Of a stretch of DNA of 64,000 bases, positions 50,500 to 61,789 are shown piece by piece. The notes under the pieces were generated by a model, which was not told where the DNA came from, did not search any database, and saw only the letters and a list, made by a program, of their open reading frames with translations. How positions within the stretch are numbered: position 1 is the stretch's first letter; each line of letters begins with the position of its first letter. The stretch covers positions 2,528,001 to 2,592,000 of the forward strand of contig OZ251518.1 in assembly GCA_965242965.1 (NCBI GenBank), in the 5' to 3' direction. This DNA is from Candidatus Poribacteria bacterium (GTDB taxonomy: Bacteria > Poribacteria > WGA-4E > WGA-3G). Position numbers and translations under genes: made by a program.

Positions 50500-50660
50500 G
50501 TTTTGGTTATCCTTTGGCATGGCGAGGGACAAGTTTCCCGCGCCTTACGGTGAAGGGGCCTGTTTTTTCCCGTAGCGCGGGGGCCCTCGGATGCCATACG
50601 CGCATCCGAGAGGGTTTCCCCCGCGATCGCTGCATGGCGAGGGACAGGCCCTCGCATGTT

Positions 50661-52067: not shown

Positions 52068-53018
52068 CTAGATTCTGCCGTTTTCCTCAAGCATCGTGAC
52101 GGTTTGGGTTGCCGCCTTCCTTGCGGCTTCATTCGCGATGCGCTCACTTTCCGCGCGTGCAGTCTGGGCTGCGACGCGTTTGCTTTCTTTAGTTGCGCGT
52201 TTTGCTACTTCGTGTGCGGCTTCGTGTGCGGCTTCGCTGGCGATGCGCTCGCTTTCGCGCGTCGCTTGCGCGGCGATTTCACTCGCAACTTGCTTGGCTA
52301 CCTCACTCGCGGCTTGCACAGCGACTTCACGTGCGATGCGTTCGTTTTCCTTCATCGCTTCATGGACGACGTGCTCAACTTTATTCGTGGTCTGCACGGC
52401 AATTTCAGAAGCAATCTCTTTTGCGACTTCGCGTGCGGCTTCGCGGGCGATGCGCTCGTGTTTCGACATCGCCGCGTCAACACTGCGCCGGTTCTCAGCG
52501 GTTGCCTCGCTGACGATGCGTTCAGTCTCCTTTGTCATCTGCGCGGCGATTTCGCTCGCAACCTGTTTCGCGACTTCACGTGCGGCTTCGCGTGCAATCC
52601 GCTCGTGTTTCTCTAGTGATTCGTCTAGAGCGCGTTGATTTTCGGCTGCCGCCTCTTCCGAAATACGCTCGCTTTCGGCGATTGTTGCGTTGAGCCTCCG
52701 CTCCTGTTTTTCCATCGCTTTGTCGACAATTTCCCGAACTTCCACGAGCAGTTCGCGTCGAAATAAATCCGCCTCCTGCCGCCATAAAGTTACCTGTTCG
52801 GATAGCGTGTCGAATTTATCGGATAGGTTATGATATGAGTTGTCATGTTTTTCAGCCATGTTCCGCTGAGCGTTCTCAATCCGTGTCAAGCGATTCGCCG
52901 ACTCGTCATCGTGCTTCTTGCGGCTCCACAGCCAGACGATGAGCACTCCAATCCCAGTCGCAATCAGCGACGCGATAACCGGGATTATCAGATTAGTAAT
53001 TATCGGGTTAGAAAGCAT
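52068..53018 (-). CDS. Membrane-anchored repetitive coiled-coil protein
   Basis: AAGGAG RBS, N-terminal TM helix, repeated ERIAREAAREVAK motifs; the ORF-track extension is repeat DNA. Confidence 0.8.
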   Translation of the reverse strand: MLSNPIITNLIIPVIASLIATGIGVLIVWLWSRKKHDDESANRLTRIENAQRNMAEKHDNSYHNLSDKFDTLSEQVTLWRQEADLFRRELLVEVREIVDKAMEKQERRLNATIAESERISEEAAAENQRALDESLEKHERIAREAAREVAKQVASEIAAQMTKETERIVSEATAENRRSVDAAMSKHERIAREAAREVAKEIASEIAVQTTNKVEHVVHEAMKENERIAREVAVQAASEVAKQVASEIAAQATRESERIASEAAHEAAHEVAKRATKESKRVAAQTARAESERIANEAARKAATQTVTMLEENGRI

Positions 53019-53049
53019 ACTCACTTCTCCTTTGCAATTGAACTTAACT

Positions 53050-53540
53050 GAGGGTGTTTCATATCTCGATGCCTTCCCGGTAGGAGAGACCTCCCGGCCT
53101 CGATGCAATACCGTAGGCGCGCCCTCCTGGTCTCGATGTTCCCGTAGCGCGGGGGCCTGTCCCCCGCGATCGTTGGAGTGCGCGTGCATGAACGATGGCG
53201 AGGGACAGGCCCTCGCCCTACGGTGAGGGAGTGGCGTTTTTTTCATCGTAGGGCGGGGCCCTCGGATGCCATACGCGCATGCGAGCGGATTTCCCCCGCG
53301 AGCTCCATCGTCCCGATGTGTGTTTCCCCATCTGTAGTTTGTGATCGCCTGATCACAAACAGGTCAGGATCAGGCGATCCTGACCTACAGGGGTGAGGAG
53401 ATCTGGTAGCAAAACGCTGGCGAGGGCCTGTCCCTCGCCCTACGATGAAGGAAGGCTTTCTGCCGCGGCCCCGGGAGGCGCGCCGCCCTATTGCATCGAG
53501 ACCAGGAGGTCTCTCCTACGGGGACTTATGAAACACTCTC
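53050..53540. mobile_element. MITE-like element (491 bp) with REP-like cargo
   Basis: TTAA-CT-GAGGGTGTTTCATA ... TATGAAACACTCTC-AC-TTAA. Confidence 0.75.
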
Positions 53541-54557: not shown

Positions 54558-54589
54558 AGCCGCTCCCGTGAAAAAAAACGCTTTCCCTT

Positions 54590-54827
54590 CACGTAGGGCG
54601 AGGGCCCTCGCATGCCACACGCGCATGCGAGAGGGTTTCCCTCGCCAGCGTTTTGGTGCAAACCGCATCATCTTTATAGTTCAGGATCGCCTGATCCTGA
54701 CCCGTTCGGGAGCGGGTGCTCCCGAACTACAGAGGTGGGCCCGATGCGCGGCCCCCTCGCTTTTCTATCGGTAGTCGCTAGCCCCCAAGGGCGGATAAAT
54801 ACCGAAACGGAGATATGAAACACCCTC
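54590..54827. repeat. Repeat cluster ending in a TIR
   Basis: GTAG palindromes, then the reverse complement of the left end of the 41429 element, ending TATGAAACACCCTC-AA-TTAA. Confidence 0.8.
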
Positions 54828-54829
54828 AA

Positions 54830-55444
54830 TTAAGAATAAAGCCGCTCCTTGACGTAGAAGACGAGTGCGGTATTCCCCACTGCCAGCACCGCGCCGACAA
54901 CCGTCTGAAGCAGCGTGTGCCGTTGCCGGTAAACCCGTGCCCACGCAATGAACGGCACGAGTAGGAAGAGCCACCCACATTGCGAATCGACGAGGACGAC
55001 AAGCACCGTAATGCATCCTGTTGCGACGCTGCTGTGGAAACTAATCTTCCACATCGGCGTAATCGCGGAGAAGACGATGCTATTCGCAATGTAGGCGACA
55101 CCTGCCCAAATGATATGACGCTCGGCATCCAGCCAATACAGGATAACTGTCCCGACACTCATGCTTGCGAGTGTGAAGCAGAGCGGTGAGAGGCGTTCTT
55201 CCTTGCTATGCAGGTGCCAGTCGCTCACCTTTGAGAGCCGGAACAGAATCCCGATCCAGAGCATCGGTAGCACGGTAACGAATATCCCTAATATGGTTAG
55301 CCACAGCAGTGTGTCGCGCGAGGTAACGGCGTATTTTTCCACCACCACCACGGTTGTCGCAATCAGCACGAAAAAGGGACTGAAGACGAGGGAGATGCCC
55401 CATGCCATCCGGTCGCGAAATCCTGATAGAATGCTATGCGTCAT
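54830..55444 (-). CDS. PAP2-superfamily membrane protein
   Basis: KISFH and WARVYRQRHT motifs, ~6 TM helices. Confidence 0.8.
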   Translation of the reverse strand: MTHSILSGFRDRMAWGISLVFSPFFVLIATTVVVVEKYAVTSRDTLLWLTILGIFVTVLPMLWIGILFRLSKVSDWHLHSKEERLSPLCFTLASMSVGTVILYWLDAERHIIWAGVAYIANSIVFSAITPMWKISFHSSVATGCITVLVVLVDSQCGWLFLLVPFIAWARVYRQRHTLLQTVVGAVLAVGNTALVFYVKERLYS

Positions 55445-56505
55445 CAATCACTCGGCGTTTCCAACGTTTGTTCAAAGAAATCGACTAAGTCGGCACCGTG
55501 CGTGCCGGGGTTGACTTCCGTATCAATTTTCACAATCTTCCCGGTTTTGTCAATAATTACGGTTAACCGATTGACGCGGCCATCTGGTGCGTCCGTTGCG
55601 CCGTAAAGGAGCGCGAGATTGCGGTTCGTATCTAACAAAAGTGGGAAGTTGAGTTGATTCTCTTCCGAAAATTTCTGATGCGATTCGGCATCATTCAGCG
55701 TAATTCCGAACACCTGTGTATCGTGTGCGGCGAGACGACTCGACTCATCACGGAGCGAGCGAACTTGCATCGTTCAGCCACGTCCAAAATCGCGCGGATA
55801 AAACGCCAGTACGACGTTCTTTTTCCCTTGGAACGCGCTCAGTTGGTGCGTTTTTCCCTCGCCATCGGTTGCGATGAAATCGGGAGCCGGTTGCCCCACT
55901 TCAACTTTCGGTAACATTGTCTTCAATATCGCGGTGACATCTTCACCGTGCGTTTTGACATTGACTTTATCATCGATGGAACGGATGTAACCCGCTTTGT
56001 CAATGATAAAGGTAACCCGCTTTGACGCGTTAAACTCTGCCATGATACCGCTATAGACGCTGCTGACTTTCGCCGTCGGATCTGCCAGCAAGGGAAAGTT
56101 TAACTTCAGCGATTCCCGAAACCGCTGATGCGTTTCAATGGTATCAAGACTCACGCCGAAAACCACAGTGCCGGTCGCTTCTATCTCGCTCAAATTTTCC
56201 CGGAGCGAGTTAACTTGGGTTGTTCAGCCCCCGGTGAAATCTTTCGGGTAAAAGGCGAGAACGACGTTCTTTTTCCCCCAGAACTCGCTGAGCGTTCGCA
56301 TCGTCCCGGTCTCATCTGCCAGCGTAAAATCGGGAGCTATCATCCCAACTTCCAGGGATGGCGATGGCTCCGTTGCCGCTAATGCCTCTGAATTTTTCAC
56401 GTCATCCTCCGCGAAAACGGGGGGAGTCCAGAGTGCCGCGGCGAGCAGGATAGCACAACAAACGGCTAACAGCTGGAAACCCTTCCTCCAAAGTTTTTGA
56501 AACAT
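55444..56505 (-). CDS. Secreted tandem two-domain peroxiredoxin (BCP/PrxQ-like) with two putative selenocysteines
   Basis: Three track ORFs share one frame, separated by TGA at 56224-56226 (FYPKDFTGG-U-TTQ) and 55774-55776 (FYPRDFGRG-U-TMQ), the peroxidatic Cys position; signal peptide; GAGG RBS. Confidence 0.88.
55736..55761 (-). promoter_or_regulatory. Putative SECIS hairpin for the second UGA
   Basis: CG-CUCG-CUC-cgugau-GAG-u-CGAG-u-CG; core arm starts 14 nt after the UGA. Confidence 0.6.
56185..56209 (-). promoter_or_regulatory. Putative SECIS hairpin for the first UGA
   Basis: CUCGCUC-11 nt-GAGCGAG perfect stem starting 14 nt after the UGA. Confidence 0.6.
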
Positions 56506-56639
56506 TTCGGATACCTCAAAAAAATAGGTTAATTCTTGCAGTGCAAGACAAGTTTGGATTTTTACCACCATTATCTTAAAAAGAATTATACCATAAATCC
56601 GTGATATTGTCAAAACTTTTTTTAATTCCGGCATCTGAG

Positions 56640-57170
56640 AGCAGGATTTACAAGAGTATCACGATTCGCAAGAGAGGAGCAGGATTTACAAGATTTACAA
56701 GATTGGCAAGATGAGTCCGTAGCGCGGGGGCCTGTCCCCCGCGGTCGTTCACGTGTTCCAGTGACTGTAGTTCGGGAGCGCCCGCTCCCGAACGGGACAT
56801 GGAGAGGAGAACCCTTTTCTGGCCCGTAGCGCGGGGGCCTGTCCCCCGCGAGCGTTCGACCTGCGCGAAAACCGCACGCCAGTCAAAGCCGTTTTCCCGA
56901 CCGAGGCATGGCGAGGGACAGGCCCTCGCCCTACGGTAAACGGCACGCTTTTTTTAACCGTAGCGCGGGGGCCCTCGCCTGCCACACGCGCAGGCGAGCG
57001 GGTTTCCCCCGCGATCATACCCGTGAAAAACATCTCCTCAGAAGCTCTGCAGCGGTTTATCTCTGTAGGACAAGAGCACCTGCTCTGGATCCGTTCGGGA
57101 GCAGGCGCTCCCGAACTACAGATGTCGGCAGGTCGTGCGATCGCGGGGGACAGGCCCCCGCGATACGGGC
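56640..57170. repeat. Mosaic repeat cluster
   Basis: GAGCAGGATTTACAAGA units plus GTAG palindromes. Confidence 0.9.
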
Positions 57171-57242: not shown

Positions 57243-60200
57243 TTACTCCCGCTGCTTGACTTCGCCAAACGTCGTCAACGAACGATTCGCCGGCGATACG
57301 GGACCCGGTAAGTAACGCGTCCGCAACACCTCCGGCCGACCACCTAACGAAACCTCCTCGATCTGGTAATAATACTCGACCCCAGGTTTCGCAGAGGTAT
57401 CCGTGAACGTGTAAGTTTGACGTTCGCCTGTCGTGCCGGCACCGGCGATGAGAACAGGATTCAAAAGCGTGAAACCACTCTCGCGTTTCAGGCTGCGACG
57501 CAGATTGAAACCGGCATTGTCGACTTCAGACTCGGTTGTCCATGTGACCACAACGGGACCGGCATCGGTACGCGTGAGGGTGAAACTTGACAATTCCACG
57601 GGCAAGGCACCGCCTTGACGATACCCCGGTGTGCCGATGTCCTCGGCATGGCCGTAGTGCAACGATTCAACTTTGAATTTGTTGAAATGCGCCGCTAATG
57701 CCCAATTGGACTTCAACATCCCATCGCGTGCCACCGCGCCCTTATCGTAACGGCGGACGACCGAACTGCGCGCGCCATCCCGACGATTCGTGGGCCACAC
57801 CCAGACCGGCGCGTCATCGGTGCGACGATTGTCATCGATGTTGCCTACCTCGTCTATCTTCGTGCCGTTTCTGTCGGACAACTTCAGATAGAATCCCTCG
57901 CCGCTCAAGAAGGTATCGCGCGCGGTTTTGATGCGCAGATTTTTCTCGTGCAATTCGAGGAGATTGTAGACGCGATCTGCAGGGAAGACCTCTGCCGAGG
58001 AAGCGCGGGCATCGCCTGCGACAATCAAGAGGGTCTGATTCGGTTGAATCACTTTCTCTTGCAGCGTCAACGTGACGATAGGTCTGCCGACCAAGTCTCC
58101 CGAATTCCGATTCTGGATCTCCAACTGCCACCGATTCAGATTCAACGCCTCGGTTTTGGATTTGTTATACAACTCGATCCACTGCGGCAGGGTGCCACCC
58201 TCAGAATCAAACATGATTTCGCTGATAGTCACCGCACCTTTCGGCGTAGATGCCTCCGTTTTGACAGCACCATTCGGATAGCCCGGCGTGCCGGCAGTGG
58301 CGGCAGACTTGGAGACCTGCCTGTCATAGCCGATACCGGTAAATGCAGCTTCCGCCCAGGCATCTCGATGATACCCAATGAGATCCGCCTTCGCGCGCTG
58401 CCAGACTTTGCCGGAACTCAGCGCGTCTTCGGTGGCATCGCCGGGAGCCTCAAGCACCTGCAGGGGCCAGACATGCGTATCATAATCGCCTGTCTCGTCA
58501 CGGACAAATGCATCCGTATCACTGCCGCCGCCCCCGGCGACATCGATGAACGCCTCATCCAAACCCAGTTTCTCCTTTGCATTGCGGAGAATCAATAGGA
58601 ATTTGCCATCATCGGGCAGTGAGAGCCCTGCATCCACTAAAGAGGCATGCGATAACCCCTTATTTTCTCCGCCTGCGAGTGGTGTTTTGTCCGAAGGCAT
58701 GTTGGTAATGAGCAACAAACCGTTCGCCGGCACACTCACATCTGGGAAAACGATGAGGGACGTATCCTCTTTCTTGCCATCGGCGACAACAGATAACTCC
58801 CAGTCTTTCAGAGAGACATCTGAACCGCTGACATTGCGGAATTCTAGCCAGTCGTTTGTTGCATCACTGCCATTGCCGAGTTCGTTGAAGACGATGGGAG
58901 AACGCGGCACAGCCGATGCAACCGCCTTTGAGACAGTGTCATCCTGCGGAATGTAAACCACCGGGGTCACCGCCACATCAAACGTTCTCGTCGGCTCAGT
59001 GGACGAATCCGGGACAGGCGCAGGCTGACCTGCAGCCATCGCCGGATCAGCGGTACCACGACGCTCAAGTCCTGACGAAGACATCAACGTCGTCTCACGC
59101 GGAACAGCCAAACTGTTGATACTGGCGATATCCACGCTCACCGATGCTGCCGGCGGGTCGGTCGCTTGCAAAACATACGCAAACGGCACAATCGTTGAAC
59201 CCGAACGCTCCTCGCCTTTCTGCCACACGGCATGCCGGGCATTCGCGGCCTCTCGCGCGCCGAGATAGATTGTCACATACGGCGGATCTTCGCCTTCATA
59301 AGTCAATCCGTCCTGCGCAAACGGCACCTCAACGGTGATCTCGCTACCCGCAAGATACGCACCGCCTTCGGGTTCAACAACCTTAATCTCATCCGCAACT
59401 ACCTGCACCGTGTCTACCGGCACCGTGACAGTGTTCGATGCCAAATTGCCGAGCGGGTCAGAATAGTCGGCAAGCACCGTATCGGCGGGCACCTGGAACG
59501 TCATCTCCCCTTTAAAGCCGAGCGGGGGCACCACCGTCACCGGATACCGCAACCACGCATCCACCGCCTCGGGACGGTTCACCGTCACCGTGCTATCCCC
59601 AACATCTGCAGACAGCGCAGTTTGAAGTGCCGTGAACAGCTCTTCGTTCGCCAAATCATGAGACGCTGCGGTTTTCACATGCCCGGCTGCAGTGTAGTCC
59701 TCCTGGAACCGCAATGCCAACGTAAACGTCCCGGTTTGTGTCCCCGACGGCACGTCGACTATCTCTGTCATCGCGGCGACAGAGTCCTTCACTACCTCCG
59801 GATAGGCGATAGTGCCCTTGGCGGTAGTATCATACGTGGGCGGAAAGTAGTGAGGAAACTCTGTCCCCGGCTGCTTATAAAAACCCTCCGAGACAGTATA
59901 GTGCCGTACGCGACCACCTGATTCGGGTAGACCACCGAGGGCGAGGGTCGCCAACCCGTTATCAATCACTGGGAGGTAGTCAAGAAAACCGTCGCTGTTT
60001 CTGTCAAGGTCTGTCTTTTTGATTCGGTAATTCTGCCCGCCGCGTTTGTATACCCCACGTAACATAGGGTTACCCGCCTGCGCAGCCTCCGAAGCACTAT
60101 AGGCCAACCTGTGGCTACGATACTCCGTATTCTTGGGGGCGGTGCTCTCTGGGTAGGGGATGTAACCATTGTCTCCTGCACCCTCTATAAACCCAGACAC

Positions 60201-61789
60201 GTCCATAAACTCTGCCCATCGCTTCCCCAAGAGATCGGTATTAGCACCAAATGGCACGCCGAATCCAAACTCCCCAGAGTGTAGCCCTAGGATTTGATCG
60301 TATGTGTAACCGTAGGGGTAGTCTGTGAAGAACGCTAACTCAGCGTATTCGTAATTAGTACCGACAAGCGGACGGTATGGGACATTGAACGGGGCCACGG
60401 TATTGTCCTTCCTGGCCAACCACCCGCCCGGCAACAAGCCATTCAATGCATCTGCATTGGCCTTTGTCACCGTAAATTGGTAGACGATGGTATGGTAACC
60501 ATCCACACCGGCATGCCCCCAATCCGTAGCGGTAGCCGCAGAGTCGGCATTGAAGTGGTTTACGCGGCCATCCTGTGTCATCCGTTCCAGTGGATAATTG
60601 GGATTCAGTCTCCCGACATCCTTAATGCCCACGGCTGCAATTATCGTCCCGCCGGAGGCATCCCGGAAGAAATTGCGCGCCCAGATAGTGCCTGAATCGG
60701 GCCCCTTTTGACCGGACTTGAACCATAATGGCAAATCATTCACCGTCCACGGGACGGTACGGCGACCGGAGACGGGATTGAGTGGGTGGCCATCCAAGAG
60801 TGGCGGAAGCTGTTTAGGCTTTAGAGGCGGCGCAACATTACTCGCCGGATCATCACCAGGCGTAGGATTTATGAATTCCGTTACCGTTTCATAGTACCGA
60901 AGTTTGACGTTGATGGCAATGGCGACGATATCCCCGGGGACTACCCACGTATTTTCCGAGTCGGTGACAAGCCCCGTGTTGCCGGGTTTGTTCGGATCTT
61001 CTAGTAGGCCGCCGCTCATCGGATCGCTGGTACCCCCACCGGGATCGATATTAACCCAGAAGTAGGTATCCGCCTCGCTTGCCAGTTGAGTTTCGCCATC
61101 AATGAGCTTCTGATAGTCCTTCCAGAAGGATGGGAACAGCCGCGCGCGCCTGCTTTCAAAACCGGGCGGCGTAACAACATAATTCGTGTCAGTGCCTTTG
61201 TTATTGTGAAAATAGGTACCGACCTGCAGCTCTGCCATCGGCGTTTTCTTCGGATTTTTATAGACCCGTATCCACTGAATCTCAAAATAATCCGGCGGGC
61301 AAGCTGTCAACCCGCCACCAAAGAAGGCATCAATACCCATAGTATGGCGGTTGGGGCCGCCGTGTGTCGAATTCGCCGGCAGGTTAAACGTTGTCGTATG
61401 CAAGGTATGGACTGGCAAGGGCTGGCCCTGCCAATCCGCAGTGATGCTATCACTGCCATCAGAAGCGACATCGCCTGCCGTGTATGTGTCGTGGCTCTCT
61501 CCCGGCGGTGCAAGCACCGTCAGCACACCGAATGTGAGCAGTAGGCAGCCTATCAAAACGGGATGGATGCGCGCGGCGGACCGCGGGTGTCCCCCGTCCT
61601 TCTGCGCCTTCCTGCTAAGAACTGCAGGATTTAACGGTTTGTGAAGGGGGGGGGGTCAATTGGATGGAACGCGTCACCGGCGGGCGCATGCGCGCGGAAT
61701 CTTTGCAGCGGGTGCTGCAATAACGCGGTGACGGTAGGTTTCAGGCGGACAGCAATGCCCGCGAAAATGAGAGAGAATAGGATTCTCAT
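57243..61789 (-). CDS. Large exported protein with two lamin-tail-like domains and an Ig-like C-terminus; 5' end frameshifted at C10 (61646-61655)
   Basis: IVFNEL..DWLEFRN, VTISEIM..QWIELYN, GTPG, LPVELSSF..WTTESEVDNAGFN; AGAGGAG RBS at ATG 61789 joins the main ORF only with C8 or C11. Confidence 0.8.

Follow-up and report, generated by a model that had tools for sequence, protein, structure and literature searches.

Two in-frame UGA codons, probably read as selenocysteine, in a predicted exported tandem peroxiredoxin of sponge-symbiotic Poribacteria

Why does a peroxiredoxin gene carry two stop codons inside its reading frame, each exactly at a catalytic position, and keep them in nearly every genome in which it is found? 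The question arises in a 64,000-nucleotide (nt) stretch of a Candidatus Poribacteria genome (assembly GCA_965242965.1, contig OZ251518.1, positions 2,528,001 to 2,592,000 of the forward strand). This whole stretch is called the window hereafter, and coordinates refer to it. Under translation table 11, the gene is cut into three open reading frames (ORFs; 56634..56224, 56193..55774 and 55770..55444). Read from the ATG at 56505 on the minus strand, with TGA taken as selenocysteine (Sec, U), the same DNA gives a single frame of 353 amino acids (aa). With a probability of about 0.75, we consider that it encodes one exported two-domain peroxiredoxin of the BCP/PrxQ type, with Sec inserted at both UGAs, derived from a duplicated Sec unit. 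The parts of the gene are:

55444..56505, minus strand: whole gene, 353 codons, two of them in-frame TGAs read as Sec, and the terminal TGA (55446-55444)
56410..56505, minus strand: signal-peptide-like N-terminus, residues 1-32 (MFQKLWRK, a hydrophobic core, then VFA/EDD, the slash marking the putative cleavage site), from sequence and hydrophobicity
55978..56349, minus strand: peroxiredoxin domain 1 (Pfam), residues 53-176, with an intact PxxxTxxU motif (P, T and U each in 59 of 59 genes)
56224..56226, minus strand: UGA-1, in-frame TGA at codon 94 (Sec94), the peroxidatic position of domain 1
55504..55899, minus strand: peroxiredoxin domain 2 (Pfam), residues 203-334, with PxxxGxxU, Gly replacing Thr (at position -3, 47 of 59 genes have G and the other 12 have T)
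55774..55776, minus strand: UGA-2, in-frame TGA at codon 244 (Sec244), the peroxidatic position of domain 2

A preliminary description of the locus, made from the letters alone, had proposed this single frame of 353 aa with two BCP-like domains and a TGA at each peroxidatic position. Both points held: the frame was recovered from the minus-strand sequence, Pfam found the two domains, and U94 and U244 fall exactly where the catalytic residues are expected. The terminal stop TGA has a second TGA directly after it. Contigs assembled from four sequencing runs of four studies cover both in-frame TGAs, and none of the 40 differences listed (of 47) falls on either of them, as a TGC or TGT in the reads would.

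The relatives of the gene that carry names all belong to Candidatus Poribacteria and are sponge symbionts. Taking E ≤ 1e-20 as a match, the gene was matched in 58 of 61 genomes of the same order; no match was seen in G021 and G027 (94-96% complete) or in G057 (85% complete). All 54 two-domain matches, found in 54 genomes, contain both TGAs, and the remaining four matching genomes, from one genus, have a single-domain form with one TGA. Phylum-wide, a match was obtained in 164 of 176 genomes, and within the order in 153 of 158 (this genome not counted), with matches outside the order being weak (E 1e-21 to 1e-29). Among the two-domain matches listed across the phylum, both TGAs are present in all but one divergent second copy (in G112, with one TGA); the partial-coverage matches in G136 and G103 show one TGA each. 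Both TGAs stand in one frame in all 30 loci fetched from genomes of the order and in 37 of 38 named Poribacteria loci. In the single exception among these 38 (L083, VXOP01000043.1) both motifs are present in different frames, through a frameshift or an assembly error. Finally, each of the 59 distinct genes has U in both places, with a spacing between the two TGAs of 150 codons in 45 genes, 151 in 13 and 155 in one, and with TAA (47), TGA (7) or TAG (5) as the gene's own stop. The gene is thus real and conserved, though table-11 ORF calls break it up.

Variants at the Sec positions were also recorded. The second copy in G112 (G112:C108:3378-4316), 49% identical and lying beside a normal copy, has a domain 1 without Sec and keeps the TGA of domain 2. 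Two metagenome proteins (P0018 and P0019) read FLIGST in domain 1, with Ser at the Sec position, and likewise keep the TGA of domain 2.

In metagenome proteins 43-70% identical to the predicted product, 'W' stands at the Sec position in 16 of 16 cases for domain 1 and 15 of 16 for domain 2, which is the print expected of a gene caller that reads TGA as Trp. Homologues from other phyla (Nitrospinota, Binatota, some Acidobacteriota and others) align at this position with Cys (TGC/TGT), and further homologues, many of them from Acidobacteriota, have a single TGA there.

The genome (5.70 Mb) encodes the whole machinery for Sec: selA (577 bits), selB (331 bits), the gene for tRNA-Sec (selC, 78 bits), which adjoins selB, and selD (358 bits). 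The selD gene itself contains an in-frame TGA (U21 in KCAGUASKL; L010, G000:C1:58854-59813), with a hairpin GCUCC[GGG]GGAGC about 12 nt past it. Across the phylum, selA is present in 163 of 176 genomes, the misses being mostly fragmented assemblies. Elsewhere in this genome TGA is an ordinary stop: it terminates 655 of 2544 ORFs of at least 300 codons, and the next in-frame stop lies at a median of 16 codons past it, versus 21 past TAA or TAG. On these counts a code change to TGA = Trp was rejected. More broadly, a changed code or near-cognate suppression that would put Trp, Cys or Gly at the two TGAs is very improbable, and so is a pseudogene or a faulty assembly. The W that public gene callers put at both sites in the homologues would fit the former, but TGA behaves as an ordinary stop throughout the genome and ends this very gene, a Trp at the peroxidatic position would be functionless, and the full Sec machinery is at hand. 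The same TGAs also recur in 54 genomes and in the contigs of the four runs.

Outside the window, this genome has three more genes of the AhpC/TSA family with a single in-frame TGA, in a UxxC or UxxS motif (GGWUPFC, FGTUGFC and GTWUPNS), and two of the three have a signal-peptide-like N-terminus and a hairpin at +18 to +24. Together with the tandem gene, they bring the genome to at least five Sec-containing domains of peroxiredoxin fold. They lie at:

G000:C1:1012994-1013365, minus strand: AhpC/TSA-family gene with one in-frame TGA
G000:C1:1196679-1197050, plus strand: AhpC/TSA-family gene with one in-frame TGA
G000:C1:112533-112919, minus strand: AhpC/TSA-family gene with one in-frame TGA

What kind of peroxiredoxin would be made? 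Pfam finds two AhpC-TSA/Redoxin stretches (residues 53-176 and 203-334, E 1.2e-68), with PF00578 (AhpC/TSA) scoring 229.2 bits over two stretches against a curated cut-off of 26. In NCBIfam, the top family is BCP, a thioredoxin-dependent thiol peroxidase (NF006960), at 175.5 bits against a cut-off of 140, a score that sums both domains; the PrxU model (NF040737) is not reached (107.2 bits, cut-off 270). The AF2 model of the protein (mean pLDDT 84.7, pTM 0.80) is confident over residues 49-349 and has an N-terminal helix at 4-22, with a linker of low confidence after it. Its best solved matches in Foldseek are Bcp1 (3drn, E 6e-14, TM(target) 0.87), BcpB (5epf) and AhpE (1xvw), each of which spans one domain. 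As modelled, then, the protein has a peroxiredoxin fold of the thioredoxin type with two BCP/PrxQ-type domains, for which peroxidase activity is predicted.

The active-site motifs read FYPKDFTGGUT in domain 1 and FYPRDFGRGUT in domain 2. The PxxxTxxU motif of domain 1 is complete in all 59 genes. Domain 2 of this genome, reading PRDFGRGU, departs from PxxxT/SxxC(U) by a Gly in place of Thr. This replacement, already pointed out in the preliminary description, occurs in 47 of 59 genes, including all the closer relatives (≥65% identity), but it does not extend to the whole family, as Thr is kept in the 12 genes that diverge most, with 50-62% identity to this one. The description was also right that this protein has no resolving Cys, and wrong if that is taken as a family trait. 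A Cys at +5 after U (U-x4-C, the resolving position of BCPs) is found in domain 2 of 58 of 59 genes and in domain 1 of 23 of 59; in this genome the +5 residues are Asn (domain 1) and Arg (domain 2), so that the resolving Cys of BCP/PrxQ proteins is missing from both. This gene is the sole exception for domain 2, with CGC (Arg) versus TGC/TGT in the others, and its mature protein, free of Cys altogether, is unique in that among the 59 distinct genes. Given that 1-Cys BCPs exist too, the missing residue does not exclude membership in BCP/PrxQ. Two conserved Arg residues about 70 residues past the peroxidatic position, R163 and R313, do not vary among the 59 aligned sequences and are presumably the catalytic Arg of each domain, as in peroxiredoxins generally.

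The opposite patterns of the two domains (Thr in 59 of 59 genes and Cys at +5 in 23 of 59 for domain 1; Thr lost in 47 of 59 and Cys at +5 in 58 of 59 for domain 2) could also mean that both UGAs are Sec and that labour is divided: domain 1 would be the peroxidase, and domain 2, no second peroxidase, would serve as an internal redox relay or resolving module. The pTM of 0.80 adds to this by suggesting a fixed packing of the two domains. We regard this division as unlikely, if still the foremost competitor, since the 12 divergent genes keep the Thr of domain 2, the Arg is invariant in both domains, and domain 2 of this genome is itself without Cys at +5. In addition, the single-domain form of one genus is of the domain-2 type, keeps Thr (FTSGU) and occurs on its own. 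The reading with two peroxidase domains is therefore the one carried forward below.

A Sec codon in bacteria is expected to be followed by a selenocysteine insertion sequence (SECIS), and the preliminary description had seen, 14 nt past each TGA, a hairpin starting CUCGCUC. In both places the TGA is indeed followed by 14 nt and then CUCGCUC, and the two candidate structures are:

56185..56209, minus strand: SECIS-like hairpin 1, CUCGCUC, an 11-nt loop CGGGAAAAUUU and GAGCGAG, beginning 14 nt past UGA-1 (minimum free energy, MFE, fold)
55738..55760, minus strand: SECIS-like hairpin 2, 5' arm GCUCGCUC, loop CGUGAU and a 3' arm of GAG and CGAGU separated by a single bulged base (RNAalifold consensus of relatives)

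Hairpin 1 is both the MFE and the centroid fold in RNAfold. According to the distance rule of bSECISearch, the loop stands 16-37 nt from the UGA; at both sites a conserved hairpin lies directly 3' of the UGA at a distance compatible with SelB. The same geometry is seen in two other UGA-containing peroxiredoxin-like genes of this genome (UxxC type), whose 7-bp stem occupies +18 to +24 and whose G-rich loop (GGC/GGU) starts at +25.

The hairpins were compared across relatives in alignments of 54 distinct sequences for site 1 and 51 for site 2. At site 1, 92.1% of the cells are paired in the stated register, and sliding the partner lowers this to 16-52%. As closing pair, 32 sequences have C-G, six G-C, one A-U and one U-A. 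The G-C sequences have changed on both sides, with a 5' codon CAG (Gln) and a 3' codon GAC (Asp) where the C-G sequences have GAG (Glu), so that the compensatory change alters the protein too. The closing pair is open in 14 sequences, of which 11 are among the 12 most divergent; as read from the alignment, these 11 use another 3' arm, GAG-N-UGAGC, in the shape of site 2. They would thus retain the hairpin with an exchanged 3' arm, which suggests that the site-1 hairpin moved to a different 3' arm in the closer relatives. At site 2, the RNAalifold consensus comprises eight pairs, none of them broken, and 97.1% of the cells are paired. The change G21 to A in 12 sequences is absorbed by pairing with the former bulge, and compensatory changes are found at two pairs (C-G to U-A and G.U to U-A), one in each of the two most divergent sequences. 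Both hairpins are therefore kept, with compensatory changes at both. The site-2 loop has the sequence CG(G/U)GAU, and that of site 1 begins alike, except in two sequences with GAC for GAU. Synonymous sites in the 14 codons after each U are more frozen than elsewhere: the major-codon fraction is 0.85 (22 columns) versus 0.63 (185 columns), with a Mann-Whitney p of 2.6e-7 that overstates the case because the columns come from related sequences. This suggests that each in-ORF hairpin is constrained both as code and as structure.

Bacterial Sec insertion competes with release factor 2. The UGAs could then mostly terminate, leaving truncated main products and a full-length protein that is rare or selenium-dependent, or only one of the two could be decoded efficiently. 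Two serial sites would multiply the loss, and variants with a single TGA exist (the two metagenome proteins with Ser in domain 1 and the second copy in G112). We consider this improbable: the fragment ending at Gly93 would have neither the catalytic residue nor most of the fold, and purifying selection acts on the downstream 260 codons, on both hairpins and on both TGAs (54/54 matches and 59/59 genes). Some dependence of expression on selenium, through termination at either UGA, is nevertheless a reasonable prediction. Taken together, the Sec machinery, the conservation of the TGAs, the Cys-type homologues and the kept hairpins support the two-domain, double-Sec protein that had been proposed. 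None of the findings that the preliminary description named as refuting (a genome lacking Sec machinery, TGC or TGT in the reads, homologues whose Cys does not align with the TGA) turned up.

Is the protein exported, as had also been claimed? The N-termini were evaluated with a hydrophobicity heuristic (a 12-mer with mean Kyte-Doolittle hydropathy, KD, of at least 2.0). Such a 12-mer begins at most 17 residues from the conserved ATG in 49 of 51 distinct N-termini of relatives, and the two exceptions look like wrongly picked starts. The hydrophobic core is followed by VFA/E, ALA/E, ASG/E or ISA/E. Most of the N-termini examined have neither a twin-arginine motif nor a lipobox. By this heuristic, a signal peptide of the general secretory (Sec) type is predicted, and with it an exported protein. 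The hydrophobic stretch might instead stay uncleaved as an inner-membrane signal-anchor, or translation might start downstream and give a cytoplasmic protein. Apart from the heuristic nature of the call, the few positive charges in the n-region of many relatives would fit this, as would the single-domain form of one genus, which starts at the domain itself and has no hydrophobic N-terminus. However, the 49 N-termini share the conserved ATG about 78 codons before the first U, the hydrophobic core and, just ahead of a Glu, a site resembling Ala-x-Ala or Ser-Gly, and this pattern is kept across sequences about 50% identical in the mature part. Retention in the inner membrane or the cytoplasm is accordingly somewhat less plausible than a division of labour between the domains, and we keep to the exported form.

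How did two Sec sites come to lie in one gene? A trace of duplication is still readable in the DNA:

55739..55842, minus strand: 104-nt copy found in a repeat search, with 73% identity to 56189-56292, which lies 450 nt (150 codons) away

Motif, TGA and 5' hairpin arm all fall within this repeat; the TGA and a 5' arm TCGCTCCG(G/T)GA are common to both domains. In a maximum likelihood tree of 73 domains, rooted at the midpoint only, domain 1 forms one clade (support 100/99), domain 2 and the single-domain forms another (98/97), and the two together a third (97/83), with Cys-type BCPs as its nearest neighbours. Each domain has the other as its closest relative, and a Sec-encoding unit with its SECIS was therefore probably duplicated. 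The simplest reading of the tree and the repeat is a tandem duplication of an already Sec-encoding unit before the four families of the order diverged.

A single-domain form of 153 aa replaces the tandem gene in one genus (g8; genomes G053, G041, G047 and G038, loci L130-L133), with two copies in G053. It is of the domain-2 type, begins with MTDVKSL, has no hydrophobic N-terminus, reads FTSGUTAEVC at the active site and carries the site-2 hairpin.

On this basis, we propose the following course of events. A single mRNA would give a single pre-protein of 353 residues; at each UGA, the hairpin 14 nt downstream, within the coding sequence, would recruit SelB and Sec-tRNA(Sec), and Sec would be inserted. 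The N-terminal signal peptide would carry the protein across the inner membrane by the Sec pathway. In the cell envelope, the selenolate would replace the usual peroxidatic Cys thiolate, and both domains would reduce peroxides. The oxidised selenenic acid would be resolved in most relatives as a selenenylsulfide with the Cys at +5, and in this genome directly by an external thiol. Re-reduction would come from an envelope thiol system in which DsbD supplies thioredoxin-like proteins; a gene elsewhere in the genome codes for a DsbD-family transporter (DsbD_TM, 149 bits). The two-domain form would have arisen from the tandem duplication of a unit with TGA and hairpin already in place. The anatomy of the gene, its conservation, the Sec machinery and the conservation of the hairpins are direct observations on these genomes; Sec insertion, export, peroxidase activity and the electron donor are what we infer from them.

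A wider reading, to which we would give even odds, is that this is an undescribed selenoprotein family and the hallmark of one sponge-symbiotic Poribacteria order: an envelope peroxidase with two catalytic Sec residues, in which Sec codon and SECIS were duplicated, the site-1 hairpin was re-registered onto another 3' arm, and Sec chemistry permitted the loss of the motif Thr, universal otherwise, and, here, of every Cys. In its boldest version, the two selenols of this Cys-free protein could resolve each other across the pseudo-dimer.

Several observations weigh against the interpretation as an exported double-Sec peroxidase. Hairpin 2, which has a bulge, is not the MFE fold in its own 66-nt context, where RNAfold prefers another fold, and that part of the proposal does not stand for this genome. 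The folding energies at both sites lie within the range of shuffled sequences (z -0.83 at site 1 and +0.62 at site 2), and a search of the gene against Rfam at permissive thresholds gave no family match, only a chance miRNA at E 9.2. With such ordinary energies and no Rfam match, the hairpins are unconvincing on this genome alone; since the z-scores do not go beyond chance, the case for them rests on the comparison across relatives and not on thermodynamics. That comparison has its own limits: at site 2 five of the eight pairs never vary and only two cells have changed on both sides, much of the conservation consists of unvarying sequence and is uninformative on pairing, and the genomes compared are kin, so that the counts are not independent. 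On the protein side, the absence of the motif Thr from domain 2, here and in 47 of 59 genes, makes its competence as a peroxidase uncertain, and this genome's protein offers no resolving Cys. No gene for a thiol reductant is linked to the locus, in this neighbourhood or in those of the relatives, and among the sequencing runs searched for the stretch no RNA run contained it.

The gene has a neighbour with which it probably forms an operon:

54830..55444, minus strand: downstream membrane-protein gene, 204 aa, with a weak PAP2 match (Pfam PAP2, E 6.9e-5, 23 bits against a cut-off of 27.2)

The ATG of this gene overlaps the stop of the peroxiredoxin gene, which makes it a likely operon partner. 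The PAP2-like gene is directly downstream in 55 of 67 loci. The 12 most divergent loci lack it and have housekeeping genes as neighbours (shikimate-pathway genes, EF-P, TGT, scramblase).

Further features of the window were noted around the operon. Upstream, a 1437-aa ORF (57243-61556, minus strand) has Lamin Tail Domain matches (PF00932, E 3.6e-21) and is probably a large surface protein. A 392-aa ORF (52068-53246, minus strand) contains a repetitive Ala/Glu/Arg-rich helical region built from eight 37-nt and three 85-nt units, and gave no Pfam match. Families of GC-rich palindromic intergenic repeats (like repetitive extragenic palindromes or miniature inverted-repeat transposable elements, REP/MITE; 40-85 nt, 66-90% identical) flank the operon and its neighbours, and they yield spurious ORFs with recurring peptides such as 'SGAGAPELQ'. 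They lie at:

50557-50641, 53232-53316, 54578-54662 and 56945-57029: palindromic repeats
53135-53174, 56710-56749 and 56817-56856: palindromic repeats
54684-54732 and 56765-56813: palindromic repeats, a pair

Why does the locus matter? More than one Sec per bacterial protein is rare, and the two paralogous sites, with their frozen synonymous positions, compensatory pairs and switched 3' arm, show how a double constraint of code and structure evolves. In one Poribacteria order, 153 of the 158 genomes sampled have the gene, which, being split in table-11 ORF calls, may be missing from the functional inventories of a major sponge symbiont. If the reading is true, it would offer a natural bacterial model for the decoding of two UGA-Sec sites per message, and would put a specific selenoenzyme behind the SelA and SelB enrichment reported for sponge symbionts. 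An exported selenol peroxidase at the host-symbiont interface is also a testable idea for the tolerance of host-derived oxidants.

How does this gene compare with known systems? PprX, a peroxiredoxin of the Caulobacter cell envelope that Cho et al. are said to have described in 2012, is reportedly reduced through a DsbD-like transporter and TlpA. It is exported and needs electrons across the membrane, as is predicted for the protein described here, and a DsbD-family gene exists in this genome too; it differs in being Cys-based and single-domain, and here no linkage to a reductant is seen. Bcp/PrxQ proteins (E. coli Bcp; 3drn, 5epf, 1xvw) are the best family and fold match for each domain, and their typical Cp-x4-Cr spacing is kept as U-x4-C in domain 2 of 58 of 59 genes. 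They have, in contrast, Cys and not Sec, a single domain and no signal peptide; in this genome the resolving Cys is missing, and domain 2 is without Thr. PrxU is a cytoplasmic protein. It was found in Eubacterium acidaminophilum and shares with this protein a Sec at the peroxidatic position of a peroxiredoxin (PrxU is reference 83 in PMC13188914), but it has one domain and one Sec, and the score against its model (107.2 versus 270 bits) sets the tandem protein outside that family.

The literature on Sec places the gene more closely. The available part of a 2026 review counts 119 families of bacterial selenoproteins, a small subset with two or three Sec, and lists Prx (PF00578, TxxU) with one Sec (PMC13188914). 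The double selenoproteins named there (MbdU, a methyltransferase/UXPK-star fusion) likewise have two or three Sec per polypeptide; no peroxiredoxin tandem is among them in that part of the review, and here the Sec sites are paralogous, with homologous hairpins. For the hosts of the gene, an accessible portion of one study reports sponge-symbiont bins enriched in SelA and SelB and names no client there (PMC5649159), and a portion of another lists Poribacteria among the phyla with Sec-containing group 4 hydrogenases (PMC13582414). In the literature outside supplements and subscription journals, we found no description of a tandem, double-Sec or exported (signal-peptide) peroxiredoxin, in Poribacteria or elsewhere.

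The closest known system is the Sec-containing BCP-type peroxiredoxin of marine and soil bacteria (COG1225, TxxU), described in the part of PMC1088965 available as a classic and abundant marine selenoprotein family. It has the same fold, the same PxxxTxxU site and a hairpin inside the ORF just past the UGA; single-domain TGA forms of this kind (FYVLAFTGG, the TGA, then T) are found in Acidobacteriota loci, and in our tree the Poribacteria domains are not nested in the Sec clade of Acidobacteriota. That family has a single domain and one Sec, whereas the gene described here has two domains, two Sec codons, two hairpins and a predicted signal peptide. What is known, therefore, is the single-Sec BCP-type peroxiredoxin; what appears to be new is its tandem, two-Sec form with a predicted signal peptide.

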